This document shows, in pieces, positions 2,883-20,618 of a DNA stretch of 50,697 bases (the first letter of the stretch is position 1; each line of letters starts with the position of its first letter). The notes under the pieces were generated by a model. That model saw only the letters and a list, made by a program, of their open reading frames with translations. It ran no database searches and was not told where the DNA came from. The position numbers were made by a program, and so were the translations under genes. Source of the DNA: Frateuria sp. (lineage in GTDB: Bacteria > Pseudomonadota > Gammaproteobacteria > Xanthomonadales > Rhodanobacteraceae); NCBI RefSeq assembly GCF_013362045.1, contig NZ_JABFWW010000018.1:1-50697 (forward strand), read 5' to 3'.

Positions 2883-3674
2883 ATGAAAGACAAGCGAGAG
2901 ATCGTCTCCAACTGGCTGCCGCGCTATACCGGCACGCCGCTGGAACAGTTCGGCCAGCACGTGCTGCTGACCAACTTCGGCCTGTACGTGGAGCTGTTCG
3001 CCCAGTGGCACGGCGTGGAAGTGCGCGGCCGCGACCGGCCCATGCCCAATGCCACAGCCGACGGCATTACCCTGATCAACTTCGGCATGGGCAGTCCCAA
3101 CGCCGCTACGGTGATGGACCTGTTGAGCGCGGTCGAGCCGAAGGCGGCGCTGTTCCTGGGCAAGTGCGGCGGGCTCAAGAAGAAGAACCAGCTGGGCGAC
3201 CTGGTGCTGCCGATCGCCGCGATCCGCGGCGAGGGCACCTCCGGTGACTACCTGCTGCCGGAGGTGCCGGCACTGCCGGCGTTCCAGCTGCAGCGCGCGG
3301 TCTCCACCATGATCCGCGACCTCGGCCACGACTACTGGACTGGCACCGTCTACACCACCAACCGGCGCGTGTGGGAGCACGACGAGGCGTTCAAGGACTA
3401 CCTGCGCCGCACCCGCTGCATGGCGGTGGACATGGAGACGGCCACCATCTTCGCCGCCGGCTTCGCCAACAAGATCCCCTGCGGCGCCCTGCTGCTGGTC
3501 TCCGACCAGCCGATGATCCCCGAGGGCGTCAAGACCGAGGCCAGCGACCGCAGCGTGACCGAGCGCTACGTGGAGGCGCACATCCGCATCGGCATCGAGG
3601 CGCTCAAGCTGGTCCGCCGCAACGGTCGCAGCGTCAAGCACCTGCGCTTCGAGGACGAGTCCGAAGGCGATTGA
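2883..3674 (+). CDS. amn: AMP nucleosidase (short form)
   Basis: NWLPRYTG, LLTNF, INFGMGSPNAAT, FLGKCGGL, DMETAT, LLLVSDQP motifs. Confidence 0.9.
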   Translation: MKDKREIVSNWLPRYTGTPLEQFGQHVLLTNFGLYVELFAQWHGVEVRGRDRPMPNATADGITLINFGMGSPNAATVMDLLSAVEPKAALFLGKCGGLKKKNQLGDLVLPIAAIRGEGTSGDYLLPEVPALPAFQLQRAVSTMIRDLGHDYWTGTVYTTNRRVWEHDEAFKDYLRRTRCMAVDMETATIFAAGFANKIPCGALLLVSDQPMIPEGVKTEASDRSVTERYVEAHIRIGIEALKLVRRNGRSVKHLRFEDESEGD

Positions 3675-3735
3675 GACCTCGTAATCTCCTGCGGAATGAT
3701 TGGTTGCCGCGCTTGGTGTAAGGTGTCGACTAGTT

Positions 3736-3773
3736 CAAATTTCATTGACCAATTGTGATTTGGGCGCTAAATA
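3736..3773 (+). promoter_or_regulatory. Putative sigma70 promoter of the TonB-dependent receptor, overlapped by an imperfect inverted repeat
   Basis: AT-rich patch; TTGACC at 3745-3750, 17 bp spacer, weak TAAATA; CAAAT...ATTTG dyad at 3736-3762. Confidence 0.4.
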
Positions 3774-3887
3774 GCCCACTACGGCTACCAGGCCGTCGCC
3801 TTTGGCGTTTACGTGGACACCAGGCGCATCAGCCGGGAGGGGAGACCTTTCCCAGGCGAAGCAGTAATTCCAACGGGAGGAAAATCA

Positions 3888-6818
3888 ATGAAGTACGGGG
3901 TAAAAAAATTGTCGTCGGCGGTGCGCATCGCACTCTCGCTTGGTGCGGTGATCGCCGTGGGAGCCTCCGGCGCCGCGTTCGCGCAGGACACCGGCACGCA
4001 GGCCGGTACGCAGCCCGACCAGAAGAACACCAAGACGCTCGAAACCGTCACCGTCACCGGTTCGCACATCCGCCGCGTCGATCTGGAAACCTCCAATCCG
4101 GTGGTGACCATCGACGCCTCGCAGATCAAGGCGACCGGTAAGCTCACCCTGGGCGACATCGTCCAGCAGCTGCCGGCGGTGACCGGCGGCAACACCAATC
4201 CGCAGGTCAACAACAGCGGCGGCAGCGGCAACACCAGCATCGGCCTGCGCGGCCTCGGCAGCCAGCGCACGCTGATCCTGATCGACGGCAAGCGCATCAT
4301 CAACGGCGATCCGAACTCGATCCCGGCCGACATGATCGAGCGCATCGAAGTGCTCACCGATGGCGCCTCCTCGGTGTACGGCTCCGATGCGATCGGCGGC
4401 GTGGTCAACTTCGTCCTGAAGAAGGACTACCAGGGCGCCCGGTTCACCGTGAACTACGGCCAGTCCGGCCATGCGGACGGCCGCTCGAAGGGGTACACCT
4501 TCACGTTCGGCCAGACGTCCGACAAGGGCAGCATCATGGGCGGCGTGGACTACAACAAGACCGAGCAGGTGCTCGCCAAGAACCGCGATTTCTCGAAGAA
4601 CGCGGTCTCCATCTACGGCAGCAGCCAGACCCCGATCTACAGCTACGTCGGCGGTTCGACCTTCCCGGCCTACGGCCGCATCCAGCTGCCGGCGCAGTAC
4701 CAGGCGCAGTACGGCTGCAAGAACGTCTCGCTCAACCCGGGTGCCAGCGGCCAGAACATCGCCACCGACTACCACTGCTTCACCAATGCGGACAAGTACA
4801 ACTACGCCACCGTCAACCTGATCCAGACCCCGCAGGAACGCACCAGCATGTTCCTGAAGGGCACCTACAACCTGGGCGAGCATGTCCAGGCCTACATGGA
4901 TGCCTACCACAACAAGACCAGCTCGGGCTTCCAGCTTGCGCCGGCCTTGCTCGGCAGCCTCTACGGCGCGGTGATCTCGGCGAACAGCTACTACAACCCG
5001 TTCGGCCAGGAATATTCCTCCGCTGGCCTGGACTACCGCGCGCGCCTGGTGTCGGCCGGCAACCGCTCGGCGAACATCGCCAGCGCCACGGACCAGATCC
5101 ATGCTGGGTTCAAGGGTGACTTCACCCTGTTCGACCAGGGCTGGAACTGGGACGTGGGCATGGGCTATGGCCACTTCTCGCAGCAGACCATCACCCGTGG
5201 CCTGCCCAACCAGGACAAGATCAACGCGGACCTGGGTCCGTCGCATTTGGATCCGGCCACCGGCAAGGTGGTTTGCGATTCGGGCGCTGCCGGCTGCATG
5301 CCGTTCAACCCGTTCAACCTGTACGACGCGAACTCGGTGGCAGCGTTGCAGGCCGCCGCGGTGCCGGCGATCAGCAACAACTTCTCGATCGAGCGCGTCT
5401 ACTCGGCCGATGTGAACGGTGGCCTGTTCGATCTGCCGGCCGGTACCGTCCAGCTGGCCGCGGGCGCCTCCTATCGCAAGGAGTACACCCGTTCCGAAAT
5501 CGATCCGCTGTTGCTGATCGACCCGTCGACGGGCAACTGCACCCTGGGCAGTCAGTGCAGCTCGCCACTGCGCGGTGGTTACAACGTCAAGGAAGCCTAC
5601 GCCGAGGTGTTCGTTCCGGTGCTGAACGACCTTCCGTTCGTGCAGTCCCTGAACGTGACCGTCGGTGACCGTTACTCCAAGTTCAGCACCTTCGGCAGCA
5701 CCAACAACACCAAGTTCGCGGTGGAATATCGCCCGATCAACGACCTGCTGCTGCGCGGCACGGTGTCGGAGGTGTTCCGCGCGCCGACCATCAGCGACGT
5801 CTACCGCTCGCCGATCAGCGATGCGCCCAAGCTCAGCAGCGATCCCTGCGACGGCATTACCACCGCGGGCAACCCGGCCTGCGCCGGCGTACCGACGGAT
5901 GGCAGCTTCAAGGACCAGAACGTGGCGGCCGGCCAGCAGATCAAGGGCGTGGCGTCCGGTTCCAAGTACGCGGGCTTCCCGCTCGGGCCGGAGAAGGGCA
6001 AGTCGTTCGACCTCGGCCTGGTCTACTCGCCCAGCTTCGTGGAAGGGCTTTCGGTCAGCGCCGACGTGTGGCACCTGTACCTGAACGACACGATCTCCTC
6101 GATCGGTGCCCAGACGGTGCTGGACCTCTGCTACAGCGGCATCACCCGGTATTGCCCGCTGATCAGCCGCTTCCCGGCGGGCAGCGCCAATCCGGGCGAA
6201 ATCGCCCAGATCATCGAGCCCACCGGCAACCTGGGTCGCACCGACGTGTCCGGCGTGGACTTCTCGGGCCGTTACCGCCTGCCGCAGTTCTCGTTCGGCA
6301 ACTTCGTGGTCGGCGTGGACGCGACCTACCTGAAGCGCTATGACCAGCAGACCGCTCCGGGTACGGCCGCCAACAACATCTTCCACGATGCCGGTCACTT
6401 CCAGCCGTTCGGTTCGAGCCAGGCCTCCACCTGCCCCAGCGGCGGTGGCGTGTGCCTGTTCCCGCGCTGGCGCGGCAGCAGCTTCGTGAACTGGAACCTG
6501 GGCGACTGGAGTGCCTCCTGGCGCATGCGCTACATCGGTGCGTTCCGCAACGGCTCGAAGAGCCCGTCGCAGGACACCAACCCGGTGCAGGGCCTGCCGG
6601 GCGTGGAGCTCAAGTACGGCGCGACGATCTACAACGACGTGTCGGTCGGCTACAACTTCGAGCCGCTCAACACCCGTATCGACCTGGGCGTGAACAACCT
6701 GTTCGACAAGCAGCCGCCGTTCCTGTACGCCAACAACACGCTCAACGCCAACACCGATCCGAGCGACTTCGATCTGCAGGGCCGCTACTACTGGGCTCGC
6801 GTGACCGTGTCGTTCTGA
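3888..6818 (+). CDS. TonB-dependent outer-membrane receptor with six Cys pairs
   Basis: GGGAGG RBS, Sec signal peptide (AFA-Q), TonB box ETVTVTG, plug motifs LRGLGSQRTLILIDG and IERIEVLTDGASSVYGSDAIGGVVNF, C-terminal NLFDK and terminal Phe. Confidence 0.95.
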   Translation: MKYGVKKLSSAVRIALSLGAVIAVGASGAAFAQDTGTQAGTQPDQKNTKTLETVTVTGSHIRRVDLETSNPVVTIDASQIKATGKLTLGDIVQQLPAVTGGNTNPQVNNSGGSGNTSIGLRGLGSQRTLILIDGKRIINGDPNSIPADMIERIEVLTDGASSVYGSDAIGGVVNFVLKKDYQGARFTVNYGQSGHADGRSKGYTFTFGQTSDKGSIMGGVDYNKTEQVLAKNRDFSKNAVSIYGSSQTPIYSYVGGSTFPAYGRIQLPAQYQAQYGCKNVSLNPGASGQNIATDYHCFTNADKYNYATVNLIQTPQERTSMFLKGTYNLGEHVQAYMDAYHNKTSSGFQLAPALLGSLYGAVISANSYYNPFGQEYSSAGLDYRARLVSAGNRSANIASATDQIHAGFKGDFTLFDQGWNWDVGMGYGHFSQQTITRGLPNQDKINADLGPSHLDPATGKVVCDSGAAGCMPFNPFNLYDANSVAALQAAAVPAISNNFSIERVYSADVNGGLFDLPAGTVQLAAGASYRKEYTRSEIDPLLLIDPSTGNCTLGSQCSSPLRGGYNVKEAYAEVFVPVLNDLPFVQSLNVTVGDRYSKFSTFGSTNNTKFAVEYRPINDLLLRGTVSEVFRAPTISDVYRSPISDAPKLSSDPCDGITTAGNPACAGVPTDGSFKDQNVAAGQQIKGVASGSKYAGFPLGPEKGKSFDLGLVYSPSFVEGLSVSADVWHLYLNDTISSIGAQTVLDLCYSGITRYCPLISRFPAGSANPGEIAQIIEPTGNLGRTDVSGVDFSGRYRLPQFSFGNFVVGVDATYLKRYDQQTAPGTAANNIFHDAGHFQPFGSSQASTCPSGGGVCLFPRWRGSSFVNWNLGDWSASWRMRYIGAFRNGSKSPSQDTNPVQGLPGVELKYGATIYNDVSVGYNFEPLNTRIDLGVNNLFDKQPPFLYANNTLNANTDPSDFDLQGRYYWARVTVSF

Positions 6819-6849
6819 TTGACTGGACAGCACTGAGTAGCTGAAGCTG

Positions 6850-6887
6850 AAGAGCCGCGCGGGGCGACCCGCGCGGCTCTTTCTTTT
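6850..6887 (+). terminator. Rho-independent terminator
   Basis: 14-bp stem AAGAGCCGCGCGGG / CCCGCGCGGCTCTT, GCGA tetraloop, followed by TCTTTT. Confidence 0.85.
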
Positions 6888-6904
6888 GAAAAGTTGCGAG
6901 TCAC

Positions 6905-8734
6905 GTGATCAACGACATTCTCAGCGCACTGCAGGCCGGTCGGCCCTCCGAGGCCGAGCGGCTCTGCCGGCGCTCGCTGGCGACCGCACCGAACCCGGAT
7001 GTGACGCTGTTCCTCGCGATCAGCCTGCAGCAACAGGGTCGCCCGCAAGAGGCACTCGTGCTCTACGCCGAGCTTGCCCAGTCGTTCCCGGACAGCGCGT
7101 TGCACCTGGGCAACTATGCGACCGCGCTGCGTGAGGCCGGGCATTTCGACCAGGCCGCCCAGATGTACATGCGGTCGATCGAACTGGCGCCGGACAATCC
7201 CGATCAGGTCATCAACCTGGGCCTGCTGCAATTGCAGCGGAAGGACTACATCGCGGCCAGGGACACGCTGATGCGGGCCCACGTGCTCGATCCCGCTTCC
7301 CCCGAGGCCCGGATCCATGCGGCACGCGCCTGTTCGGCCTGCCGCGATTCGCGCGCAGAGGAGCTGATTCGGCCGTGGCGCGACTGGACTGCGCTGGATG
7401 ATCCACTGCAGCTGGAGCTTGCGGACCTGCAGCTGGTGTTGGGTGAGGCCAACATCGCACGCATGCTGCTGGAGGAGCTGCTTGCCCGCTCGCCGGGGCA
7501 CCTGCCGGCGCGCCTGCTGCTGGCCGCCGTCTACGAGCGGGTCAACGATCTGGACGCCGCCGAGGCGCTGCTGGGCCGGATCGAACGCGAACACGCCGAG
7601 CTGGACGACGAGGCAAGGCTGGAGATCGCCCACCAGCGCGCCAAGATCGCCCTGCGGCGCGGGCAGCTCGAGCCCTCTCGCGACCTGCTCGAGCGGATGG
7701 GTCCGCGCACGCCGGACGACTACGCCCATTTCTTCATCCTGGCCGAGGTGTGCGACAAGCTGCGGGACTATCCGGCGGCCATGCGGGCGCTGGACGAAGC
7801 CCACGCGCGCCAGATCGCGGAGTTGAAGGTCAACACGCCGCATCGGTTCGAGCCCGGCGCGCCGGTGCTGCCTGCCGCGGTCGAACGGATCGGGCCTGCG
7901 GACTATCGTCGCTGGCCCGCGCTGCAGAGCCCGGACAGCGCCGGTTCGCCGATCTTCATCGTCGGCTTCCCGCGTTCCGGCACGACGCTGCTGGAACAGA
8001 TGCTCGATGCCCATCCCGCACTGCAGTCGATGGATGAGCGGCCGTTCTTCACCATCCTCTCCGATCAGCTTGCCGACCACGGCATTACCGTGCCCCAGGA
8101 CCTGCATCGGCTCGACCAGTACGCATGCGACGAGCTTCGCAAGGGCTATCTCAGCCTGGTGTGCTCGAAGATCCCACGGCGCTGGAATTGCCAGCTGGTC
8201 GACAAGAATCCGCTCAACATGCTCTGGTTGCCGCTGATCCACCGGTTGTTCCCGGAGGCGAAGTTCATCCTGGCGCTGCGCCACCCCTGCGACGTGCTGG
8301 TGAGCAACTACATGCAGAACTTCCGTGCCGCCGTGTTGGCGGTGGCATGTGCCTCCATGGAGACGCTGGCCAGCGCCTACGTCACCGCCATGGAGTGCTG
8401 GCTGCACGACGTGGAGCTGTTCAAGCCCGACGTGTTCGTATCTCGCTACGAAGACCTGGTCGCCGATCCCGCCGCACAGACGCGGCGCATCGCCGATTTT
8501 CTCGGCCTGCAGGACGCCACGCCGCTGCTGCAGTTCGATCGCCACGCCCGCGGCAAGGGGTTCATCGCCACGCCGAGCTATGCGCAGGTCACCCAGCCGG
8601 TCAACCGCAAGGGGTTGGATCGCTGGCTGCGCTATCGCGATGCGCTGGCGCCGGCGATGCCGATCCTCGCGCCCATGCTCAGGCACTGGGGCTATCCGGC
8701 CATGGCCGAGAACGCCGCGGCCGCGGGGACCTGA
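6905..8734 (+). CDS. TPR-containing sulfotransferase 1 (TPST-like)
   Basis: N-terminal TPR-like helices; 5'-PSB loop IFIVGFPRSGTTLLEQMLDAHP, DKNP, RHPCDVLVS, RYEDLV, TPSYAQV; GTG start; no signal peptide. Confidence 0.9.
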   Translation: MINDILSALQAGRPSEAERLCRRSLATAPNPDVTLFLAISLQQQGRPQEALVLYAELAQSFPDSALHLGNYATALREAGHFDQAAQMYMRSIELAPDNPDQVINLGLLQLQRKDYIAARDTLMRAHVLDPASPEARIHAARACSACRDSRAEELIRPWRDWTALDDPLQLELADLQLVLGEANIARMLLEELLARSPGHLPARLLLAAVYERVNDLDAAEALLGRIEREHAELDDEARLEIAHQRAKIALRRGQLEPSRDLLERMGPRTPDDYAHFFILAEVCDKLRDYPAAMRALDEAHARQIAELKVNTPHRFEPGAPVLPAAVERIGPADYRRWPALQSPDSAGSPIFIVGFPRSGTTLLEQMLDAHPALQSMDERPFFTILSDQLADHGITVPQDLHRLDQYACDELRKGYLSLVCSKIPRRWNCQLVDKNPLNMLWLPLIHRLFPEAKFILALRHPCDVLVSNYMQNFRAAVLAVACASMETLASAYVTAMECWLHDVELFKPDVFVSRYEDLVADPAAQTRRIADFLGLQDATPLLQFDRHARGKGFIATPSYAQVTQPVNRKGLDRWLRYRDALAPAMPILAPMLRHWGYPAMAENAAAAGT

Positions 8735-8752
8735 TCCGGTTGGCGGTGCCGG

Positions 8753-10327
8753 CTACCGGTCGGCGATGTTCGCCAGTTCGGGCAGCCATTGCGCGTACTG
8801 GCGCCAGCGCTCCAGCGAGCGCGTATGCACCGGCTGGCGTGCCTGCCACAGGCTGGCGGTGCTGATGGCGCGGTTGTCCATCGTGCCCGCGGCTGGCGCC
8901 GTCCCGGGCAGTCCGAGCCAGCCAGCCAGGGCGCCGACGGATCCCTCGATGTCCTGCACGAGGTCTTCGTACCGCACTTCGTACACGGCCTGGGGATAGC
9001 GGCGCTGCCAGTGCGCCATCAGGCGGCGCGAGCCACGGATGGCGGTGTCTATGTCGGTGAAGTCGAACGCGAAGTCCTGCGTGCCGGGGTGGAACGACTG
9101 CATCCACAGTGACAGCGCGTTGTCGCGGGCATCGCGGCGGCAGTGGATGATCCGCGCCTGCGGAAAGAGCGCGAGGATCAGGTCCACGTGCATGAAGTTG
9201 TGCGGCTGCTTGTCGATGTACCAGCGCGCCGGGGTATCGTCCTGGCGCAGCTGGGCGGCATACGTGGCCGCTGCCGCCTGCATGGCGGCGGCGCAGTCCT
9301 TGTCGGCCAGCAACGGCGCCAGTCGGGCTGCGAGCGTGGGCATCCATGGCAGTTCACCGCGATGGCGCACGTCGGGATAGCGTGCCAGCTGCTCGGCCAG
9401 CAGCGTGCTGCCGGCGCGTGGCATGCCCACGATGAACACGGGAACCCAGTCCGTCGGCGACGCCGGGAGCGGCGCCGGCATGACACGCTCGAGGCGCATC
9501 TCCACGCTGCGACGCCACAGTTTGCGCGGCCAGCGAACCTGCGCGCCGACCACGGCGTTGGCCTGGCGCAGGTAGCGGGCGGCCAGGTCGTATCGGCCGA
9601 TATCGTCATGCGCCTTGCCGAGCGCAAAAAGCAGGGAGCCGCGCGCGGCGGCACTGAGATCGCCGCGCTCGAGCAACGCGGCGAACCGGGCGAAGTCCGG
9701 ATGCTGTCCGTCGCGATAGCGCTGCAGGCCGGCAAGCCCCAGCGGCACGTGCCATTCCGGCGCGCGCGCATCGTGCGCCAGCGCAAACTCCTGGCGTTCG
9801 CGGGCACGCTCGAACTGCCCCAGCTGTGCCGCCAGGGCGCCGGCATGGGCGTAAAGGCGCGGATCGCCTGCGCCGGCCGCGATCGCCGCTTCGCAGAGGC
9901 TCGCCGCTTCTGCCTGGCGGCCGCAATCGTCGAGCAGCTCGATGGCGTCGAGGCGCTGCTCGAGATCCGGATGCGCGTTGCGGAACAGCGAGAGCAGCGC
10001 ATGGGCAACCGCCGTCATGCGGCCCTGCTCGCGCAGCAGCCGGGCCAGCAGGAAGCTGGCCGCGGCGTGGTCCGGCGATCGTGCCAGCAGCGCTTCCAGC
10101 AAGGCCTCCGCTTCGGCGGCTCGGCCCGACTGCAGCGAGGCGCCGGCCAGCGCCAGCATCAGCTCCGGCGACTGCGGCAATGCCGCCAAGCCTTCCTCCA
10201 GCACGCTCCGCGCACCCTGCATGTCACCGCACAGCATCCGCTCCTGCGCGCGTTGCAGCCACTGCTGCTCCTGGGCGGCCGGGGAGGCTGCCTGCGCAAC
10301 GGAGGGGGGGGAAGCTGGGCGGGACAT
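8753..10327 (-). CDS. TPR-containing sulfotransferase 2
   Basis: TPR repeats; VFIVGMPRAGSTL, DKQP, RRDARDNALS, RYEDLV, STASLWQARQP; start trimmed to ATG 10327. Confidence 0.88.
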   Translation of the reverse strand: MSRPASPPSVAQAASPAAQEQQWLQRAQERMLCGDMQGARSVLEEGLAALPQSPELMLALAGASLQSGRAAEAEALLEALLARSPDHAAASFLLARLLREQGRMTAVAHALLSLFRNAHPDLEQRLDAIELLDDCGRQAEAASLCEAAIAAGAGDPRLYAHAGALAAQLGQFERARERQEFALAHDARAPEWHVPLGLAGLQRYRDGQHPDFARFAALLERGDLSAAARGSLLFALGKAHDDIGRYDLAARYLRQANAVVGAQVRWPRKLWRRSVEMRLERVMPAPLPASPTDWVPVFIVGMPRAGSTLLAEQLARYPDVRHRGELPWMPTLAARLAPLLADKDCAAAMQAAAATYAAQLRQDDTPARWYIDKQPHNFMHVDLILALFPQARIIHCRRDARDNALSLWMQSFHPGTQDFAFDFTDIDTAIRGSRRLMAHWQRRYPQAVYEVRYEDLVQDIEGSVGALAGWLGLPGTAPAAGTMDNRAISTASLWQARQPVHTRSLERWRQYAQWLPELANIADR

Positions 10328-10349
10328 CTGGATCCGTGTCGAGTGGTTT

Positions 10350-11927
10350 TCACCCGTGCCACAACGGCAGGCCCAAGGCCTGGCGCAATGGATCGAGCAG
10401 GGCGCCGTAGCGTGTGCTGTGCACGGTGCTGGCGCGCAGCGGCTCGCGCACCTGGGTCGCGCTGGGCGAACGCACCTCGCGGGCGTTCTCGTGGAAGCGC
10501 AGGCAGCCCGCTTCGAACGCCAGGCCGCAGAAGTCGAGCAGCGAGCGGACCTGCGACTCTGGATCGGCCAGCAGGGCCTCGTGGTCGTGCAGAAGCACCG
10601 CATCGGGATAGCAGGCTGCCAGGCGCCGCAGGCTACGGTCGCAGTCGCGCCAGAAGCTGGCGAGGTCGCCGAAGTCGCGGCTGTATTCGTTGTTGTCCAG
10701 CCGCTGGCGATAGCATGAAAGGCAGGTTTCCAGCGGATCGCGCCGGCAACCGACGATGCGCGCTCCGGGCAGCATGGCCCGAATGGCGTCGGCATAGAGC
10801 CAGTTGCTCGGCAGCTTGTCGGTGAAGCGGGGACGCTCCTTGCGCCAGTGGGCGGTGCGTTCGAGGTAGCGCCGGCCCAGCCGCTCCCAATCCGCCGGCA
10901 GCATCGCCGCCACCCAGCGCGGGAACGGCTGCCCGCGACGGCGCGATTCCTCCGCCAGCACCTGCGGCAGGTCGGGCAGTTCGCCGGAGCCTTCCACCTG
11001 GCTGTGCGATGCAAGGATCTGTTCGGTCAGCGTGGATCCCGAACGGGGCAGGCCGACGATGAAGATCACCTCGTGCCCCAGGGCGGCGTCGGGTGCCGGA
11101 GCGGGCGGCGGACTGAACGCGGCGGCGAGCATGTCGATCGCTGTGGAATAACCCGGCGCGTTCCATCGCTGGCGCCGCCGCGCCAGCGCATTGGCCCGTG
11201 CCAGCGCCTGCAGCGATTCGTCGTAGCGGCCCTGGTCGTCCATCGCCTTTGCCAGGGCGAAGCCGATGGCGATGCGGTCGTCGTCGTTCCCGCGTGGATC
11301 GCGCAGCGCAGCGTGCATGGCGGCGATGTCGCTTTCGTCCATGCGCGAGGTCTTCAGGTCGGCCAGGCCCCACCAGGCCATGCCGGACCACGGCTGTTCG
11401 GCGAGCACGCGACGGTATTCGGCGGCCGCCTCGGCCACCCGGCCGCGCATGCGCAGCATGTCGGCCAGCAGGGCGCGCGCCTCCATGTGGCCGGGCTCGA
11501 TCGCCACCGAACGCTGCAGGGCATCGGCTGCCTCCTCGTTGCGCACGCAGCGGGTCAGCATCACGCCCAGGTTGTACCAGCCGATGGCAAGGTCCGGTTG
11601 CAGTTCGCAGGCGCGCCGCAGCGCTGCGACTGCACCGTCGTAATCGCCGGCCTGGCCAAGCAGGGTGCCGAAGGTGTTGTGATAGGCCGGGTCGTCCGGA
11701 CGCAGGGCGAGTGCGCGGCGCATCAGCTCGAGCGCCTCGCCGTGGCGGCCGTGCTGCCCCAGCGCGCCGGCATGCATGCGCAGCACTTCCGGGTGCATCG
11801 GATGGGCCGCAAGCGCGGGTGCGAGCTGGCCGATGGCTTCGTCCGGGCGACCCGCGTCCAGCGCGCGAGCTGCCGCCGCGACGCCTTGCGCCGCGCGCTC
11901 GCTCAATCCATCCAGCCGCTGCGCCAT
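10350..11927 (-). CDS. TPR-containing sulfotransferase 3
   Basis: Clear TPRs (YHNTFGTLL, WYNLGVML); IFIVGLPRSGSTLTEQILASHS, DKLP, RRDPLETCLS, SPSATQVREP; start ATG 11927. Confidence 0.9.
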   Translation of the reverse strand: MAQRLDGLSERAAQGVAAAARALDAGRPDEAIGQLAPALAAHPMHPEVLRMHAGALGQHGRHGEALELMRRALALRPDDPAYHNTFGTLLGQAGDYDGAVAALRRACELQPDLAIGWYNLGVMLTRCVRNEEAADALQRSVAIEPGHMEARALLADMLRMRGRVAEAAAEYRRVLAEQPWSGMAWWGLADLKTSRMDESDIAAMHAALRDPRGNDDDRIAIGFALAKAMDDQGRYDESLQALARANALARRRQRWNAPGYSTAIDMLAAAFSPPPAPAPDAALGHEVIFIVGLPRSGSTLTEQILASHSQVEGSGELPDLPQVLAEESRRRGQPFPRWVAAMLPADWERLGRRYLERTAHWRKERPRFTDKLPSNWLYADAIRAMLPGARIVGCRRDPLETCLSCYRQRLDNNEYSRDFGDLASFWRDCDRSLRRLAACYPDAVLLHDHEALLADPESQVRSLLDFCGLAFEAGCLRFHENAREVRSPSATQVREPLRASTVHSTRYGALLDPLRQALGLPLWHG

Positions 11928-12056
11928 CGGTGTTCCCGGTTTCGGTGTGCTCGGACCAGGCCTGCGTGCGCGGGCGCGATCCCTTGCGAGGTCATTCTTT
12001 CGACAGCGTATTATGCCCACGCAAGGGGCGGGGGCCCCAATGTAGGGGGCGATTCC

Positions 12057-13388
12057 GTGGAGCGCGTTGCAACGAGTGGACCGGACAAGCGCGCTGAGCT
12101 CTGCCGGGAGCATGCCCGCGCCCAATTGCAACGCGGCGACCTGGCACAGGCCGAGCAGGCGTTCCAGCAGCTGCTCGCGCTGCTGCCGGCGGATGTCGAG
12201 GCACTGTGCTTCGTGGCCGACCGCCAGCTTGCCCGTGACCAGCATGCGTTGGCGCTGGACACCCTGCAGGCCGCGCTGCAGGCCAACCCGGACAGCGCCC
12301 CGCTCCTGCACCAGCTGGGCGCGACCCAATTGGCCGCCGGCGCCTTCGCCGCTGCGGCGTTGAGCCTGCGCGGGTGCCTGCGGCAGCAGCCGCGGGCGTT
12401 CCTTGCCCGGCTGCGCCTGGGCATTGCGCTGGAACAACTGCAGCAGCCGAAGGAAGCGTTGCTCGCCTACTACGGAGCAATCCGCCAGGCGCAGCTGCAA
12501 GGGCGCTGGCTCAATGACGCGACGACCGCCCCGGCGCTGCGCGAGGTCGTGCAATACGCCATGCGCTACGTCAACGACGGGCGGGCCCGGCTGTTCAGCG
12601 AACTGCTCGAGCCGCTGCGCCAGCGCCATGGCGCTTCCGAGCTGGTCCGGGTCGAACATTGCCTGGCGGTGCATCTGGGACAGCAGGCACTCGAGTTTCC
12701 CGATGCGCGCCAGCAGCCGAAGTTCCTCTACTTTCCCGGCGTGCCCAGCCAGCCGTTCTATCCGCACGAGCGCTTTCCATGGCTGGAGACGCTGGAAGCG
12801 GCGACCGCCACGGTGCGCGCGGAACTGCGTGCGGTGCTGGAGCAGGCTTCGCTGGAAGCGTTCCTGGGCGAGCCGGACAGTGCCGCGACGACCAGCATGC
12901 TGCGCGGCGAATCCGGTCGGGCGGCCGCGTGGGATGCGTATTTCTTCCATCGCCACGGCAAGCACTACGACGATCACCGTGCGCGCTGTCCGCAGACCAC
13001 CCGCCTGCTCGATGCGCTGCCGCTGGTGCACATCCGCGACCACGCGCCCGAGGCGCTGTTCTCCGTACTGCGCCCCGGCACGCACATCCTGCCGCACCGC
13101 GGCGTGACCAACACGCGGCTGGTCACCCACCTGCCGCTGATAGTGCCGCGCGACTGCGCCCTGCGCGTCGGCGGCGAGATCCACGAATGGCAGGAAGGCC
13201 GTTGCGTGACGTTCGACGACACCTTCGAGCACGAAGCCTGGAACCGCAGCGACCAGACCCGCGTGGTGCTGATTCTGGACAGCTGGAATCCGGACCTTAC
13301 CGAAGTCGAGCGCCTGGCGGTCACTGCGCTGGTGGAAGCCATCGGGGATTTCAATCAGGCCTGCGACGAGACGCCCGCGGACGCCTGA
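12057..13388 (+). CDS. TPR-fused aspartyl/asparaginyl beta-hydroxylase family Fe(II)/2OG oxygenase
   Basis: GTG start after AGGGGG; TPR N-terminus; FSVLRPGTHILPHRGVTNTRLVTHLPL and FDDTFEHEAWN motifs. Confidence 0.9.
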   Translation: MERVATSGPDKRAELCREHARAQLQRGDLAQAEQAFQQLLALLPADVEALCFVADRQLARDQHALALDTLQAALQANPDSAPLLHQLGATQLAAGAFAAAALSLRGCLRQQPRAFLARLRLGIALEQLQQPKEALLAYYGAIRQAQLQGRWLNDATTAPALREVVQYAMRYVNDGRARLFSELLEPLRQRHGASELVRVEHCLAVHLGQQALEFPDARQQPKFLYFPGVPSQPFYPHERFPWLETLEAATATVRAELRAVLEQASLEAFLGEPDSAATTSMLRGESGRAAAWDAYFFHRHGKHYDDHRARCPQTTRLLDALPLVHIRDHAPEALFSVLRPGTHILPHRGVTNTRLVTHLPLIVPRDCALRVGGEIHEWQEGRCVTFDDTFEHEAWNRSDQTRVVLILDSWNPDLTEVERLAVTALVEAIGDFNQACDETPADA

Positions 13389-13589
13389 CGCCGCACGTCG
13401 CGAGCGGCATTCGTTGCGCGAGCGTCGCGCATCTTTCACCCGCGGATGACCGCCGCGCGGGCATCGTGGACCGCGGCCTTCCGCAGCACCAGTCGATGCG
13501 CCGCGCCGCCTGACGTCGGTCCGTGGGTTCGCGCATACGTCGCGAAGCAACTTCGCCCTGGGTGTCGCGCCGCCTGAGGAGCGATCAGC

Positions 13590-15380
13590 ATGAGCGAAAC
13601 CGTCGGCGACTTCATCCTGCAGCGCCTCACCGACTGGGGCATCCGGCGCGTGTTCGGTTATCCGGGCGACGGCATCAACGGGATCATGGGCGCGATGGGC
13701 CGTGCGGCCGACCGCTTCGACTACGTGCGCGTACGCCATGAGGAGATGGCGGCGTTCATGGCCGGCGGGCATGCCAAGTTCACCGGGCAGATCGGCGTGT
13801 GCTTCGCCACCTCCGGGCCAGGCGCGATCCACCTGCTCAACGGCCTGTACGACGCCAAGATGGACCACATGCCGGTGCTGGCGATCGTGGGCCAGCAGGC
13901 GCGCACCGCGCTGGGCGCCGACTACCAGCAGGAGGTGGACCTGCAGACCCTGTTCAAGGACGTCTGCGGCTATGTCGAGACCATCGTCGCCGCCGCCCAG
14001 GCGCGCCACGTGATCGACCGCGCCGTGCGCATCGCCGCAGCCGAACGCACCGTCACCTGCGTGATCGTGCCCAACGATCTGCAGGAAATGCCCGCGGTGC
14101 CCAGTCCGCCGCGCAAGCATGGCGACGTCTATTCCGGCGTGGGCTATGCGAACCCGCACCCGGTGCCGGGCCAGGAAGACATCGAGCGCGCGGCGAAGAT
14201 CCTCAACGAGGGACGCAAGGTTGCGATCCTGATCGGCGCCGGCGCGATGGCGGCAGGCGAGCAGGTCAAGGCGGTCGCCAACCGGCTCGACGCGGGCGTG
14301 GCCAAGGCGCTGCTGGGCAAGGCCGCGCTGCCGGACGACCTGCCCTTCGTCACCGGTCCGATCGGGCTGCTCGGCACCAAGCCGAGCTGGGACATGATGA
14401 ACGACTGCGACACCCTGCTGATGGTGGGAACCACCTTCCCCTACTCGGAATTCCTGCCGCCGGACGGCCAGGCGCGCGCGGTGCAGATCGACATCGAGCC
14501 GCGCAACGTGTCGATGCGCTACCCCACCGAAGTCAACCTGATCGGCGACAGCGCCGAGGTGCTCGACCGCCTGCTGCCTCTGCTGCGCCCGAAGGAGAAC
14601 CCCGACTGGCGCGAACGCATCGAGCTCAACATCCGCAAGTGGTGGCGGGACCTGGAAGCCAAGGCCATGGAGCCGGCCAACCCGATCAATCCGCAGCGGA
14701 TCTTCTGGGAGCTTTCCCCGTGCCTGCCCGACCACGCGATCATCGCCGGCGACTGCGGCTCGCACACCAACTGGTACGCGCGCGACGTGCGCCTGCGCCA
14801 GGGCATGATGGCCTCGCTCTCGGGCAAGCTCGCCACCATGGGCAGCGGCATGCCCTATGCGATTGCCGCCAAGTTCGCCTACCCCGGGCGGCCGGTGCTG
14901 GCGATCGTCGGCGACGGCGCCATGCAGATGAACGGCAACGCCGAGCTGATCACCGTCAAGGAGTACTGGAAGCGCTGGGAGAACCCCTGCTTCGTGGCGA
15001 TGGTGCTGCACAACGACGACTTGAACCAGGTGACCTGGGAGCAGCGCGCGCTGGCCGGCGATCCCAAGTTCACGGCAGCGCAGTACGTCGAGGACTTCAA
15101 CTACGCCAAGTATGGCGAGCTGCTCGGCTTCAAGGGCATCCGCGTGGACGACCCGGCGGACCTCGGCCACGCCTGGGAGGAAGCCTTCGCCGCCGACCGC
15201 CCGGTGGTGCTGGACATCATCGCCGACCCGGACGTGCCGCCGCTGCCGCCGCACATCAGCTGGGCGCAGGCCAAGGCGTACATGACCGCGCTGGCCAAGG
15301 TCGATCCGGACGAGGGCGGCATCATCAGGCAGAGCCTGCGCCAGGTGCTCGCGGGCATCCTGCCGCACGAGCAGCGATGA
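13590..15380 (+). CDS. Thiamine-diphosphate-requiring enzyme (pyruvate oxidase/PoxB-like family)
   Basis: GAGGAG RBS; FGYPGDGIN, VRHEEMAAF, TSGPGAIHLLNGLYDA, GDGAMQM...NDDLN ThDP motif. Confidence 0.9.
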   Translation: MSETVGDFILQRLTDWGIRRVFGYPGDGINGIMGAMGRAADRFDYVRVRHEEMAAFMAGGHAKFTGQIGVCFATSGPGAIHLLNGLYDAKMDHMPVLAIVGQQARTALGADYQQEVDLQTLFKDVCGYVETIVAAAQARHVIDRAVRIAAAERTVTCVIVPNDLQEMPAVPSPPRKHGDVYSGVGYANPHPVPGQEDIERAAKILNEGRKVAILIGAGAMAAGEQVKAVANRLDAGVAKALLGKAALPDDLPFVTGPIGLLGTKPSWDMMNDCDTLLMVGTTFPYSEFLPPDGQARAVQIDIEPRNVSMRYPTEVNLIGDSAEVLDRLLPLLRPKENPDWRERIELNIRKWWRDLEAKAMEPANPINPQRIFWELSPCLPDHAIIAGDCGSHTNWYARDVRLRQGMMASLSGKLATMGSGMPYAIAAKFAYPGRPVLAIVGDGAMQMNGNAELITVKEYWKRWENPCFVAMVLHNDDLNQVTWEQRALAGDPKFTAAQYVEDFNYAKYGELLGFKGIRVDDPADLGHAWEEAFAADRPVVLDIIADPDVPPLPPHISWAQAKAYMTALAKVDPDEGGIIRQSLRQVLAGILPHEQR

Positions 15381-16507
15381 CGGGCGAGCGGCCCGTGCCG
15401 GCCGGTCGCCGCATCGCGCGCATCGAGGCGGATGCCTACCGCATACCCACCGATGCGCCCGAGGCCGACGGCACCATCGCGTGGGACGCCACCACGCTGG
15501 TGCTCGCGCAGGTCTCCGCCGGCGGCCACACCGGGCTGGGCTACACCTACGCGCATGCCGCCGCAGCGGCGCTGATCATCGACCCGCTGCGCGACAACCT
15601 GCTCGGCCACGACGCCGACGACATTCCCGCCGCCTGGGCGAAGATGAACCGCAGCCTGCGCAACATCGGCCGCCCGGGCGTGGGCCTGATGGCGATCGCT
15701 GCAGTGGACGTCGCGCTGTGGGACCTCAAGGCGCGATTGCACGGCACCTCGGTGGTGCGCCTGCTCGGGCGCGTGCGCGAGGCGGTGCCGGTGTACGGCA
15801 GCGGCGGGTTCACCACTTACCCGGTCGAACGGCTGCAACGACAGCTGGCCGGCTGGGTGGAGCAGGGCATCGGGCGGGTCAAGATGAAGGTCGGCACGCA
15901 GCCGGCCGACGACGGCGCACGGGTGCGCGCCGCACGCGAGGCGATCGGCACCGCGCCCGAACTGATGGTCGACGCCAACGGCGCGTACGACCGCAAGCAG
16001 GCGCTGGCCTTCGCCACGCAATGGGCGGGCGAAGGCGTGGGCTGGTTCGAGGAGCCGGTGTCCTCCGACGACCTCGAAGGGCTCGCGCTGCTGCGCGACC
16101 GCATGCCGCCGGGCATGCAGGTGGCCGCCGGCGAATACGGCTGGGACGACTGGTACTTCCGGCGGATGCTGCAGGCCGGGGCGGTCGACGTGCTGCAGAT
16201 CGACGGCACCCGTTGCGGCGGCTTCACCGGTTTCCTGCAGGCCGCCTCGATCGCGCACGGCTTCGGCGTGCCGGTGTCGGCCCACTGCGCACCGCACCTG
16301 CACGCGCACGTCTGCAGCGCGGTGGGACACCTGAAGCACGTGGAGTATTTCCACGACCACGCGCGCATCGAGGCCATGTTCTTCGACGGCCTGCCGCCGC
16401 TGCGCAACGGCGCGCTGGTGGCCGATGCGGACGCGCCGGGGTTGGGGCTGGCCCTCAGACAACGTGACGTGGAGCGTTACCGCGTCGCCGCACCGGAGCT
16501 CCCATGA
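15377..16507 (+). CDS. Enolase superfamily, mandelate racemase subgroup protein
   Basis: ATGA overlap with upstream stop; DVALWDL, KMK, MVDAN, WFEEP, AAGE, QID, SAH motifs. Confidence 0.9.
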   Translation: MTGERPVPAGRRIARIEADAYRIPTDAPEADGTIAWDATTLVLAQVSAGGHTGLGYTYAHAAAAALIIDPLRDNLLGHDADDIPAAWAKMNRSLRNIGRPGVGLMAIAAVDVALWDLKARLHGTSVVRLLGRVREAVPVYGSGGFTTYPVERLQRQLAGWVEQGIGRVKMKVGTQPADDGARVRAAREAIGTAPELMVDANGAYDRKQALAFATQWAGEGVGWFEEPVSSDDLEGLALLRDRMPPGMQVAAGEYGWDDWYFRRMLQAGAVDVLQIDGTRCGGFTGFLQAASIAHGFGVPVSAHCAPHLHAHVCSAVGHLKHVEYFHDHARIEAMFFDGLPPLRNGALVADADAPGLGLALRQRDVERYRVAAPELP

Positions 16508-19500
16508 CGACCGCAAGAGACACCACCGGGAAGGGCGCGGTCATGCCGCTGGCGCCGCCGCGCGTGCGCCATTCCCGCAGCGACCGCTTCGCCTTCTCCA
16601 GCGCCGCCGCCACCGTGCTCGCGCAGGACCTGGCCGCACACCTGGAGGGCGAGGTCTGCTTCGACGAGGGCAGCCGCGCGCTTTACGCCACCGATGGCTC
16701 GATCTACCGGCAGGTGCCGATCGGCGTGGTCAAGCCGCGCCATGCAAGGGACGTGACGGAGACCCTGCGCATCTGCCGCGAGCACGACGCGCCGGTGCTC
16801 TCGCGCGGCGGCGGCACCAGCCTCGCCGGGCAGTGCTGCAACACCGCGGTGGTGATGGACTTCTCCTTCCACCTGAACCAGATCGTCGCGATCGACGTTC
16901 CCAACCGCCGCGCGCGCATCGAACCCGGCTGCGTGCTGGACGACCTGCGCGACGCGGCGGAGCAGCACCACCTCACCTTCGGCCCCGACCCCTCCACCCA
17001 CGCGCACAACACGCTGGGCGGCATGATCGGCAACAACTCCTGCGGCGTGCACTCGGTGATGGCCGGGCGCACCGCCGACAACGTGCACGCGCTGGACATC
17101 GTCACCTACGACGGCCTGCGCATGCATGTCGGCCCCACCGGCGAGGAGGAGCTGGAGGCGATCATCCGCGAGGGCGGCCGCCGCGGCGAGATCTACGCGG
17201 GACTGAAGTCCATCCGCGACCGCTACGCCGACCTGATCCGCGCGCGCTACCCGAAGATCCCGCGCCGCGTGTCCGGCTACAACCTCGACGAACTGCTGCC
17301 CGAGAACGGCTTCAACGTGGCGCGCGCGCTGGTCGGCACCGAAGGCACCTGCGTGACCATCCTGGAGGCCGAGGTGCGCCTGGTGCCCAGCCCGCCGGTG
17401 CGCTCGCTGCTGGTGCTGGGCTACCCGGACGTGTTCGAGGCCGGCGACCACGTGCCGCAGATCCTCTCCTTCGGCCCGGTCGGCCTGGAAGGCATCGACG
17501 ACGTGCTGATCGCCGACATGAAGCGCAAGCACATGCATCCGAAGGATCGCGCCCTGCTGCCGCCGGGGGGCGGCTGGCTGATGGTCGAGTTCGGCGGCGA
17601 CAGCAAGCAGGAGGCCGACGGCAAGGCGCGCAAGCTGATGCAGGCGCTGAAACAGGGCGACCGCCCGCCGAGCATGAAGCTGTTCGACGACAAGGCCGAG
17701 GAAGGCATGTTGTGGACCATCCGCGAATCCGGCCTCGGGGCGACCGCCCGCGTGCCGGGCCAGCCGGACGGCCATCCCGGCTGGGAGGATGCCGCCGTGC
17801 CGCCGGACAAGGTCGGGCCGTACCTGCGCGACTTCCGCAAGCTGCTTGCCAAGTACGCCTACACCTGCGCGCTGTACGGCCATTTCGGCGACGGCTGCAT
17901 CCACTGCCGCATCGACTTCGACCTTTCCACGGCCGAGGCGGTGGCGCAATGGCGTGCATTCATGGACGAGGCGTCCGACCTGGTGCTGTCCTACGGCGGC
18001 TCGCTCTCCGGCGAGCACGGCGACGGCCAGGTGCGCGCCTCCCTGCTGCCCAAGATGTTCGGCGACGAACTGGTCCAGGCCTTCGCCGAGTTCAAGGCGC
18101 TGTGGGACCCGCGCGGACGCATGAACCCCGGCAAGGTGGTCGATCCGAATCCGATGGACGCGGATCTTCGCGACGGTCCCGGCTACCAGCCGCCCAAGCT
18201 GAGGACCGCGTTCGCCTATCCGGCCGACGGCATGAGCTTCGCCCAGGCCGCGCGCCGCTGCGTGGGCGTAGGCAACTGCCGCAACAAGCATCATCTCGTG
18301 ATGTGCCCGAGCTACCGCGCCACCCGCGAGGAAAAATGGAGCACGCGCGGGCGTGCGCACCTGCTGTTCGAGATGCTCGAGGGCGATCCGCTGAAGGGCG
18401 GCTGGCGCAGCGAGCCGGTGCGCGATGCGCTGGACATGTGCCTGGCCTGCAAGGGTTGCAGGAGCGATTGCCCGGTCAACGTGGACATGGCCACCTACAA
18501 AGCCGAGTTCATGCACCACCACTACAAGGGCCGCCTGCGCCCGCGCGCGGCCTACTCGATGGGGCGCATCTTCGACGTGGCGCGCATGGCCTCGCACGCA
18601 CCGTGGCTGGCCAATGCGATCCTGCAGACACCGGGCCTGTCGCACCTGGCCAAGGCGATCGGCGGCATCGCTCAACAGCGCGCGATGCCGCGCTTCGCCG
18701 GCGAGACCTTCCGCGACTGGTTCCATGCCCGCGAAAACCAGCTTTCTCTCTCCCGGACACGCCCGGGGGAGAACGCCGCCCTGAGTTCGTCGAAGGAGGC
18801 TGGGGAGAGGGGTAGGCCTTTCCCCAACGCCCCCGAAGTCCTGCTCTGGCCCGATACCTTCAACAACTACCTGCATCCGGCTCCGCTCAAGGACGCCGTC
18901 GGCGTGCTGGAGGCGGCCGGCTACCGCGTGCAGGTACCCGAGGCCGCGCTGTGCTGCGGCCGTCCGCTGTACGCCGAGGGCATGCTGGCCAGGGCGCGGG
19001 TGCAGCTCACCGGGGTCATGGATGCGCTCTCACCGTACATCGACCGCAACGTGCCGGTGGTGGGGCTGGAGCCGTCCTGCGTCGCGGCTTTCCGCGACGA
19101 GCTGCCCAACCTCTTCCCCGGCGATGAGCGCGCGCACTGGCTCTCGCGCAACACCTATCTCTTCAGCGAGTACCTGGATCGCGTCGGCTACGCGCCGCCG
19201 CAGTTGAAGCGCAAGGCGCTGGTGCACGCGCACTGCCACCACCACGCGGTGATCGGCACCGATGCGGAGAGGCGCCTGCTGGCCAAGGCCGGCCTGGACT
19301 TCCAGCTCCTCGACGCCGGCTGCTGCGGCATGGCCGGTTCGTTCGGCTTCGACGCGAAGAAGGTGCACGTCTCCATCGCCATCGGCGAGCTGGCATTGCT
19401 GCCGGCGATTCGCGCGGCCGATGTCGACACGCTGATCATCACCAACGGCTTCAGCTGCCGCCAGCAGATCGAGCAATGTACCGGGCGCGTCGCGCTGGTC

Positions 19501-19629
19501 GTGTCGCAGGTACTGGCGCTGGCGCTGGCGCAAGGCCCATCCAACCTCGACGCCATACCCAACAAAGCCGGGTCCCTCTCGCACCGGGAGAGGGGCAGGG
19601 GAGAAGGGGTGACCGGAGCGCAGCTCTGA
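16504..19629 (+). CDS. FAD-linked and 4Fe-4S-binding oxidoreductase (YdiJ / GlcD-GlcF fusion type)
   Basis: RGGGTSLAGQ, GGMIGNNSCG, GTEGT, GHFGDGCIH, SGEHGDG, CVGVGNC, CLACKGCRSDCP and CCG motifs; ATGA overlap. Confidence 0.92.
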   Translation: MTTARDTTGKGAVMPLAPPRVRHSRSDRFAFSSAAATVLAQDLAAHLEGEVCFDEGSRALYATDGSIYRQVPIGVVKPRHARDVTETLRICREHDAPVLSRGGGTSLAGQCCNTAVVMDFSFHLNQIVAIDVPNRRARIEPGCVLDDLRDAAEQHHLTFGPDPSTHAHNTLGGMIGNNSCGVHSVMAGRTADNVHALDIVTYDGLRMHVGPTGEEELEAIIREGGRRGEIYAGLKSIRDRYADLIRARYPKIPRRVSGYNLDELLPENGFNVARALVGTEGTCVTILEAEVRLVPSPPVRSLLVLGYPDVFEAGDHVPQILSFGPVGLEGIDDVLIADMKRKHMHPKDRALLPPGGGWLMVEFGGDSKQEADGKARKLMQALKQGDRPPSMKLFDDKAEEGMLWTIRESGLGATARVPGQPDGHPGWEDAAVPPDKVGPYLRDFRKLLAKYAYTCALYGHFGDGCIHCRIDFDLSTAEAVAQWRAFMDEASDLVLSYGGSLSGEHGDGQVRASLLPKMFGDELVQAFAEFKALWDPRGRMNPGKVVDPNPMDADLRDGPGYQPPKLRTAFAYPADGMSFAQAARRCVGVGNCRNKHHLVMCPSYRATREEKWSTRGRAHLLFEMLEGDPLKGGWRSEPVRDALDMCLACKGCRSDCPVNVDMATYKAEFMHHHYKGRLRPRAAYSMGRIFDVARMASHAPWLANAILQTPGLSHLAKAIGGIAQQRAMPRFAGETFRDWFHARENQLSLSRTRPGENAALSSSKEAGERGRPFPNAPEVLLWPDTFNNYLHPAPLKDAVGVLEAAGYRVQVPEAALCCGRPLYAEGMLARARVQLTGVMDALSPYIDRNVPVVGLEPSCVAAFRDELPNLFPGDERAHWLSRNTYLFSEYLDRVGYAPPQLKRKALVHAHCHHHAVIGTDAERRLLAKAGLDFQLLDAGCCGMAGSFGFDAKKVHVSIAIGELALLPAIRAADVDTLIITNGFSCRQQIEQCTGRVALVVSQVLALALAQGPSNLDAIPNKAGSLSHRERGRGEGVTGAQL
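18742..18821 (+). repeat. Palindromic repeat inserted in frame within the oxidoreductase CDS
   Basis: Near-identical to the intergenic copy at 20519-20594. Confidence 0.85.
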
Positions 19630-19667
19630 GGCCTTATCCCCCAACGCCTCTCCTGACGGGAGAGGGA
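19574..19667. repeat. Inverted pair of CCCTCTCCC-N-GGGAGAGGG palindromes straddling the oxidoreductase stop
   Basis: CCCTCTCGCACCGGGAGAGGGG...GAGAAGGGG then CCTTATCCCCC...CCTCTCCTGACGGGAGAGGG. Confidence 0.7.
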
Positions 19668-19688
19668 CCCAAGCAGGAACGTCACGCC

Positions 19689-20515: not shown

Positions 20516-20518
20516 GGA

Positions 20519-20594: not shown

Positions 20595-20618
20595 CGCTTT
20601 TGTTTTCAAGGAACGACC

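Follow-up and report, generated by a model that had tools for sequence, protein, structure and literature searches.

Cytoplasmic enzymes that modify the exported product of an adjacent gene are known from the HMW1C/HMW1 and TibC-Aah/autotransporter systems, in which an outer-membrane adhesin is glycosylated before its translocation. For sulfation, the only bacterial protein case found in our literature search was the RaxX peptide of Xanthomonas: RaxST acts on a ribosomal polypeptide that is then exported, and the rax cluster needs both a precursor and an exporter (bioRxiv 10.1101/149930). For beta-hydroxylase/sulfotransferase operons, Iyer et al. (2010) predicted that collagen-like or tail-collar proteins are first hydroxylated and then sulfated, and they read TonB/halogenase/2-oxoglutarate (2OG) neighbourhoods as siderophore synthesis (PMC2938197). 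Here we analysed a five-gene module in a stretch of 50,697 nucleotides from Frateuria sp. (contig NZ_JABFWW010000018.1; hereafter the window), composed of a TonB-dependent receptor (TBDR), three sulfotransferases (ST1, ST2 and ST3) and an AspH-family Fe(II)/2OG dioxygenase, the four enzymes being fused to tetratricopeptide repeats (TPRs). An earlier note on the same DNA had taken these genes for a cytoplasmic line that hydroxylates and then sulfates a polypeptide.

The receptor and ST1 are inherited and exchanged between lineages as one cassette, which is the core of the module. ST1-type genes were detected in 101 of 160 other genomes of the family. We took 100 regions around 147 listed ST1 matches, favouring high scores and leaving out three regions cut by a contig end; together with 17 earlier loci and the window they formed a set of 118 stretches, a few of them duplicates, which gave 98 de-duplicated receptor-ST1 pairs. 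The next recognised upstream gene on the same strand was this receptor type for 104 of 125 ST1-type calls, while the other 21 stood behind another ST1 (8), behind a dioxygenase (3), next to an opposite-strand gene (8) or at a contig edge (2). The receptor type was present in 28/28 ST1-positive genomes and in 3 of the 20 ST1-negative genomes tested (out of 59 negatives), and the pair has stayed together at several chromosomal sites unrelated to one another and has survived a duplication. The neighbourhood comparison proposed in the earlier note thus showed genes co-conserved with the receptor, so the objection that they might not be falls away.

Because the loci are kin, the correlations of divergence are descriptive and not a test: among 18 loci with the full gene order at the amn site, distances to the receptor gave 0.95 for ST1, 0.65 for ST2, 0.70 for ST3, 0.69 for AspH and 0.29 for amn; r for receptor and ST1 was 0.90 over all 98 pairs; and with AspH controlled for in the 18 loci, receptor-ST1 kept 0.90 vs 0.21 and 0.37 for the comparison enzymes. 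The far C-terminal domain of ST1 tracked the receptor (partial r 0.77-0.88), whereas ST2, only 18 bp away, did not (0.05-0.25). Trees and sliding identity showed that in loci L007 and L076 the receptor and ST1 group with one lineage and the switch comes immediately at ST2. In locus L008 the signal peptide is resident but the rest of the receptor is foreign, as is ST1, and the foreign tract extends into ST2. The co-phylogeny of receptor and enzymes suggested earlier therefore holds for ST1 and is looser for ST2, ST3 and AspH.

Around this pair the companions vary and include ST2, ST3, the dioxygenase, small 2OG oxygenases (28 gap genes in one cluster), AspH-sulfotransferase fusions and TPR-less sulfotransferases. 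No conserved small open reading frame (ORF; at least 35 aa) and no inner-membrane transporter was found in the gaps adjoining module genes in the 118 stretches, where the receptor was the only conserved exported product of the module. TPR enzymes also accompany unlike receptor types (a Cys-rich 950-aa type, an 819-aa type and an Oar-like type), which probably carry different cargo. The dioxygenase gene is mobile. An AspH-type gene was found in 43 of the 98 de-duplicated receptor-ST1 regions and was missing from 55; in four same-genus genomes the dioxygenase directly precedes a paralogous receptor instead, in loci L011 and L013 it precedes other receptor types, and of seven regions from other families of the order, five have a TBDR no more than ~5 kb from the dioxygenase gene. 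An obligatory five-gene line that hydroxylates and then sulfates, as first envisaged, is not supported by this distribution.

The same association was seen within the host genome, which has 27 TBDR plug matches among 2961 called genes and 10 Sulfotransfer_3 matches, seven of them in TPR-fused proteins at five loci. A TBDR directly adjoins four of these five loci, against an expectation of ~1.8% per gene (binomial p = 5e-7, or 2e-5 if two paralogous pairs count once). The four are the study locus, a paralogous TBDR-ST1 pair on contig C199 (39% identity for each partner), an 819-aa receptor on C63 and Oar-like receptors on C282.

To judge from their sequences, ST1-type enzymes are supported as catalytically intact, cytoplasmic and related to tyrosylprotein sulfotransferases (TPSTs). 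ST1, ST2 and ST3 share only 25-31% pairwise identity. In a comparison with solved structures that covered ST1 and ST3, the catalytic domain of ST1 was best matched by tick and human TPST (E 7e-18 to 4e-14), the next non-TPST match being at E 4e-7, and ST3 matched a polyketide-synthase sulfotransferase domain (2e-5) slightly ahead of TPST1 (3e-4). R357, E378 and K434 of ST1 align with the TPST2 catalytic residues Arg78, Glu99 and Lys158 (PMC10951654), and the 5'-PSB and 3'-PB motifs for 3'-phosphoadenosine 5'-phosphosulfate (PAPS) are present. R357 was kept in 97/98 ST1 homologues and E378 and K434 in 98/98; R304, E325 and K373 of ST2 were each kept in 47/48, and R295, E316 and K371 of ST3 in 43/43. 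With the catalytic Arg/Glu/Lys retained in all three enzymes and TPST the best solved match for ST1, the TPST-like assignment of the earlier note is supported. The predicted structure of ST1 (predicted local distance difference test, pLDDT, 94.6) has about nine helix pairs before the catalytic domain, in a TPR array of ~aa 1-315; its fold matches were SPY/OGT-type TPR proteins and TPSTs, and only uncharacterised TPR-sulfotransferase clusters were matched in ESM Atlas. A signal-like hydrophobic N-terminus, by a rough test with a crude hydropathy cut on script-called starts, occurred in 0/98 ST1, 0/48 ST2, 0/43 ST3 and 1/43 AspH homologues and in 51/98 receptors. Together with the Pfam matches, this upholds the N-terminal TPRs and the absence of signal peptides noted before for the four enzymes. 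ST1 thus resembles human TPST1/TPST2 and tick TPST (PDB 3AP1, 5WRI, 8W5Z) in its top catalytic-domain match, sulfotransferase fold, PAPS motifs and Arg/Glu/Lys, but it has ~24% identity to them, lacks a membrane anchor, is fused to about nine TPRs, and is a bacterial, predicted cytoplasmic protein with a putative tyrosine acceptor.

All 28 ST1-positive genomes tested have an adenosine 5'-phosphosulfate (APS) kinase, as cysNC in 22 and as another APS kinase in 6. The host genome has two cysD-cysNC loci, one of which (contig C288, L022:3300-7805) is divergent from an ST3 paralogue with 59% identity in the catalytic domain; this is the fifth TPR-sulfotransferase locus of the genome, and the same pairing was seen from matching coordinates in genomes G001, G020 and G022. 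As the ST3 paralogue is divergent from cysD-cysNC and the pairing recurs, PAPS supply is present and tied to the TPR-sulfotransferase family. The idea that some ST1 genomes lack PAPS was rejected, since an APS kinase is present in all six that lack cysNC, and a Sat-type ATP sulfurylase in the five examined for it. In these six genomes (G018, G045, G062, G069, G086 and G146; L235-L249), the five tested carry Sat and APS kinase domains in one frame, mostly in two copies, and G062 has an APS kinase and no PF01507 match. The second host cysD-cysNC lies in a polysaccharide-type locus (C60:12191-24684) with two TPR-less sulfotransferases, a candidate for a sulfated surface glycan.

The dioxygenase shares the cofactor chemistry of AspH but, on its sequence, fails a test for an Asp/Asn-type pocket. 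It matches human AspH among solved structures (E 7e-28; PDB 5JQY, 8RE8), with which it has in common the TPR and oxygenase architecture, the two-His iron site and the RxS 2OG site; the metal ligands H347/H392 and the 2OG binders R402/S336/H358 were each retained in 42/43 homologues. In human AspH the TPR domain is needed for substrate turnover, and Gln627, Lys666 and Arg688 hold the carboxylate of the substrate Asp (PMC6817910). By sequence alignment only, their equivalents in the dioxygenase are Ala294, Leu334 and Val356. Among the 43 homologues the first site has 35 Ala and 7 Gly, the second 39 Leu and 3 Cys, and Val356 is kept in 42; a TPR-less LpxO-like paralogue in the host retains the Arg688 equivalent. 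Since the iron/2OG site is kept and the Asp-holding residues are replaced, the Asp/Asn hydroxylase of the earlier note stands as to fold, TPRs and cofactor site, but not as to the substrate pocket. The altered pocket points to a hydroxylation chemistry different from that of AspH, which also works in the endoplasmic reticulum lumen and not in the cytoplasm.

On this basis we tentatively propose, at somewhat less than an even chance, that the module enzymes act on the receptor chain while it is still in the cytoplasm, modifying it ahead of export. Outer-membrane proteins are exported unfolded through Sec, so a cytoplasmic enzyme could reach the receptor only before that step. The TPR array of ST1 would likely hold the unfolded chain, and the TPST-like domain would transfer sulfate from PAPS to it, probably to tyrosines in the future outer loops. 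ST2, ST3 and the dioxygenase would be looser accessories from which this receptor and others receive further sulfates or hydroxyls; the dioxygenase would act on a non-acidic side chain. The modifications might adjust surface properties (ligand binding, recognition by phages or predators) and would not be required for the receptor to exist. Because ST1 is inherited and swapped together with the receptor, the receptor is the likely object of its tagging, and the closest solved relatives of the catalytic domains (TPST and AspH) modify proteins, which favours the receptor as substrate. Sulfation before export would also explain the allele matching, the lack of another co-inherited substrate or transporter, and the presence of related enzymes beside unlike receptors. 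Of the three substrates the earlier note had considered, the receptor preprotein fits best, and the receptor's cargo and a distal precursor fit less well.

The receptor has a signal peptide of ~aa 1-32 (by eye), a plug, a 22-strand barrel and long Cys-containing outer loops (AlphaFold2 model, mean pLDDT 85), with an invariant C-terminal F976. All 20 of its NCBIfam matches were under their cut-offs, so that no ligand subfamily was assigned, and its PDB matches span the plug region only. When ST1 (1-600) was co-folded with receptor loop 226-320, the score was 0.54, compared with 0.00 for the best of 3 controls; the runs shared at least 32% of contacts, and the partner pLDDT was at least 38. Among 157 solved complexes 116 attained the co-fold mark, as did 2 of 215 mismatches; only 18 of the 157 attained it at 0.60 or under, as did both of those mismatches. 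The co-folding check named in the earlier note therefore came out above its controls and, lying in the range where both mismatches fall, lends weak support to a predicted binding of the loop by ST1.

Several observations weigh against the receptor as substrate. The co-folded loop was picked for its conserved Asp-Tyr (294-295, kept in 65/98 ST1-linked and 10/21 unlinked receptors), and its pass may stem from likeness, because solved TPST-peptide complexes exist. The Tyr content of ST1-linked receptors hardly exceeded that of unlinked ones (4.70% vs 4.35%), and the linked receptors had fewer loop [DE]Y sites per protein (1.40 vs 1.86). Loop composition did not track enzyme content (AspH or prolyl-hydroxylase-like), and the comparison of linked with unlinked receptors, which is confounded by kinship, gave no clear Tyr, Asp/Asn or Pro signature. 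The motif of epidermal growth factor (EGF)-type AspH substrates, C-x-D/N-x4-F/Y-x-C, was found in 0/98 linked and 0/21 unlinked receptors, a further difference from human AspH. Residue covariation between receptor and ST1 (98 pairs, effective 65) was uninformative, with a top z of 4.9 and no outliers. Extra copies of the receptor type, scattered in the tree, had no enzyme gene directly downstream in 18 of 21 cases, and genome G023 has the receptor type and neither ST1, an ST3 match nor a clear APS kinase. Clear co-exchanges were few (about two independent events), 8 of the 53 ST1 splits with good support are contradicted by a receptor split, and the nearest neighbours of receptor and ST1 agreed in 54/98 (within the top three in 76/98). 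Outside the family, across the phylum, an ST1-like match occurred in 18 of 300 other genomes, and only 2 of 19 regions had a TBDR beside the ST1-like gene; in 3/19 it adjoins an exported-looking protein (Gly-rich autotransporter-like, Cyc2-like or porin-like; by eye, no Pfam match), 1/19 is a polysaccharide locus, and the remaining ones lie among unrelated genes.

The co-exchange of receptor and ST1 fits equally an enzyme matched to the receptor's cargo, as is expected of a transporter-enzyme pair; receptor-oxygenase pairs such as Fiu-YbiX and PiuA-PiuC are known. The enzymes would then act on an imported peptide or aromatic compound, with ST1 matched to the cargo of each allele. Peptidases flank the paralogous locus on C199 (M17, M1) and locus L028 (S15), and the missing substrate signature in the receptor loops agrees with such a role. 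We nevertheless regard it as unlikely: neither an inner-membrane transporter nor a catabolic gene is conserved in the module, the accessory enzymes are not tied to one kind of receptor but move among dissimilar types, and spending PAPS on an imported nutrient would be unusual.

It is also conceivable, if quite improbable, that the enzymes modify envelope lipids or glycans, by LpxO/OlsC-like hydroxylation and sulfation of surface polysaccharide, and that the receptor senses, exports or is co-regulated. The dioxygenase pocket is hydrophobic, the protein matches the NCBIfam OlsC (E 7e-34) and LpxO (2e-23) lipid-hydroxylase models, although far under their cut-offs (117 vs 450 and 83 vs 500 bits), and four to five TPR-sulfotransferase ORFs lie in the polysaccharide locus outside the family (L224). 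A polypeptide partner is implied, however, by the long TPR arrays, and the best structural relatives modify proteins. The host moreover has a separate TPR-less LpxO-like gene and keeps TPR-less sulfotransferases in a polysaccharide locus of their own, and a lipid substrate leaves the allele-level tracking of one receptor unexplained.

We give little credence to a secreted peptide or siderophore-like metabolite that is encoded elsewhere, tailored by the enzymes and re-imported by the receptor. Precedents are RaxST/RaxX (bioRxiv 10.1101/149930) and the TonB-halogenase-oxygenase neighbourhoods (PMC2938197), and the host genome has one C39-peptidase exporter, on contig C222, together with a double-glycine peptide of 53 aa that includes a single Tyr. 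No precursor, exporter or nonribosomal peptide synthetase (NRPS) accompanies the cassette, though; its swap without a precursor would break specificity, and the C222 peptide has its own adjacent candidate maturase. That region (C222:8408-12877, minus strand) is in itself a candidate cluster for a ribosomally synthesized and post-translationally modified peptide, with an HlyD-like gene, the C39-peptidase ABC exporter, the double-glycine precursor (9570-9731) and a 341-aa possible ATP-grasp maturase (by eye). A real but non-functional linkage, in which frequent recombination at a variable receptor locus carries the neighbouring gene along, would suit the few independent exchanges, the conflicting splits and the lack of residue-level covariation, but is very unlikely given that the far end of ST1 tracks the receptor and nearby ST2 does not, and that the pair is kept at unrelated sites and through a duplication.

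Modification of the receptor before export, the reading we prefer, would be an uncharacterised variant of protein modification by an adjacent cytoplasmic enzyme. Like HMW1C and TibC-Aah, the module would act before translocation, but these transfer sugars, and to an adhesin rather than a transporter. With RaxST-RaxX-RaxAB it would share a bacterial sulfotransferase acting on a ribosomal polypeptide, and it differs in having no short precursor and no RaxAB exporter, with three TPR-fused sulfotransferases, a dioxygenase and a TBDR instead (bioRxiv 10.1101/149930). The earlier statement that the locus does not match the rax architecture was right, with no precursor ORF in the gaps of the 118 stretches and the only PF03412 (C39 peptidase) match of the host genome on C222, outside the module. 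The loci of Iyer et al. (2010), in the part of that paper available, are alike in co-encoded surface proteins predicted to be hydroxylated and then sulfated and in TonB receptors beside modifying enzymes, and unlike in that here TPR-fused enzymes are matched to the receptor (PMC2938197). Hydroxylation followed by sulfation is thus not a new idea, having been predicted there for other operons, and Figure 4 or the supplements of that paper may include loci like this one. A full-text search, with subscription papers mostly outside its reach, found no paper characterising the module, and no literature was found joining TonB-dependent receptors with sulfotransferase and TPR, with tetratricopeptide/aspartyl or sulfation, or with sulfotyrosine; PMC11732741 proved unrelated in the part inspected. 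New here are the cassette behaviour of receptor and ST1, together with the limits of their pairing, the non-Asp dioxygenase pocket and the link to PAPS.

Should the receptor prove to be the substrate, sulfation and hydroxylation of outer-membrane transporters would be a common kind of surface modification that has been overlooked. A large unannotated family would gain a function, and the enzymes would offer a simple bacterial model for TPR-guided relatives of TPST and AspH; the allele-matched receptor-ST1 pair makes the substrate question directly testable. A wider speculation, which we rate as possible but doubtful, is that many environmental Proteobacteria run a cytoplasmic counterpart of the animal secretory modification kit, in which TPR-guided tyrosine sulfotransferases and 2OG hydroxylases decorate TonB receptors and other outer-membrane proteins (e.g. 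Gly-rich autotransporters) and the allele-matched sulfotransferase is swapped as a surface-identity cassette under phage or competitor pressure.

Some neighbourhoods of TPR-sulfotransferase genes are recorded here in their own right. In one genus (L141, L142, L151, L158 and L160) a second ST1 copy stands without a receptor, and several of those genomes also have an extra receptor copy without an enzyme elsewhere, so that action in trans is possible. At L226:3359-14320, three TPR-sulfotransferases are followed directly downstream by an exported ORF of >1448 aa that is very rich in Gly and ends like an autotransporter, a good further candidate for protein sulfation. At L230:2153-5634, one lies directly upstream of a signal-peptide protein with an N-terminal CxxCH, which we take to resemble Cyc2. 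At L220:57-7800, one lies near a 2OG oxygenase and a lasso-peptide-like set (asparagine synthase-like, nucleotidyltransferase, PqqD-like and B2-like ORFs; by eye).

The features of the locus are collected in Table 1. All five ORFs are uninterrupted; ST1 starts 86 bp downstream of the receptor, and the dioxygenase gene is divergent from ST3, so the layout given in the earlier note was verified in ORFs, orientation and intact frames. The PF13469 matches correspond to Sulfotransfer_3 and the PF05118 match to Asp_Arg_Hydrox. The identical five-gene order recurs in many relatives, and the arrangement is therefore not due to chance; the close named relatives are Rhodanobacter and Dyella records.

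Table 1 Coordinates of the module and of related features in the window
Feature	Position	Strand	Basis
TonB-dependent receptor (TBDR), 976 aa; PF07715 + PF00593	3888..6818	+	Pfam
ST1, TPR array fused to TPST-like sulfotransferase, 609 aa; TPR + PF13469	6905..8734	+	Pfam
ST2, TPR-sulfotransferase, 524 aa, accessory; TPR + PF13469	8753..10327	-	Pfam
ST3, TPR-sulfotransferase, 525 aa, accessory; TPR + PF13469	10350..11927	-	Pfam
TPR-fused AspH-family Fe(II)/2OG dioxygenase, 443 aa; TPR + PF05118 (E 8e-47)	12057..13388	+	Pfam
Receptor outer loop aa 226-320, fragment used in the ST1 co-fold	4563..4847	+	Receptor model, alignment
AMP nucleosidase gene (amn), conserved flanking marker of the site, outside the system	2883..3674	+	Neighbourhood comparison

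The window genes that were scanned included no precursor, exporter, NRPS or PAPS gene, as the earlier note had said. Rfam gave no match within 3000-14000, the promoter and terminator scan stayed at chance level (1 vs 0.8 and 7 vs 4.2), and shadow ORFs in the opposite frames had no Pfam match. Downstream, a block at 13590-21635 with genes for a thiamine pyrophosphate-dependent oxidase, an enolase-like protein, an FAD/Fe-S oxidase, PCC, ASRT and a short-chain dehydrogenase/reductase separates the module from a glutaredoxin-rhodanese gene; the block is also adjacent to the module in genome G012, and many relatives go directly to the glutaredoxin-rhodanese gene. Further along the window, 26282-27553 encodes a bacterial member of the MATCAP (tyrosine carboxypeptidase) family (PF08014, E 8e-107).

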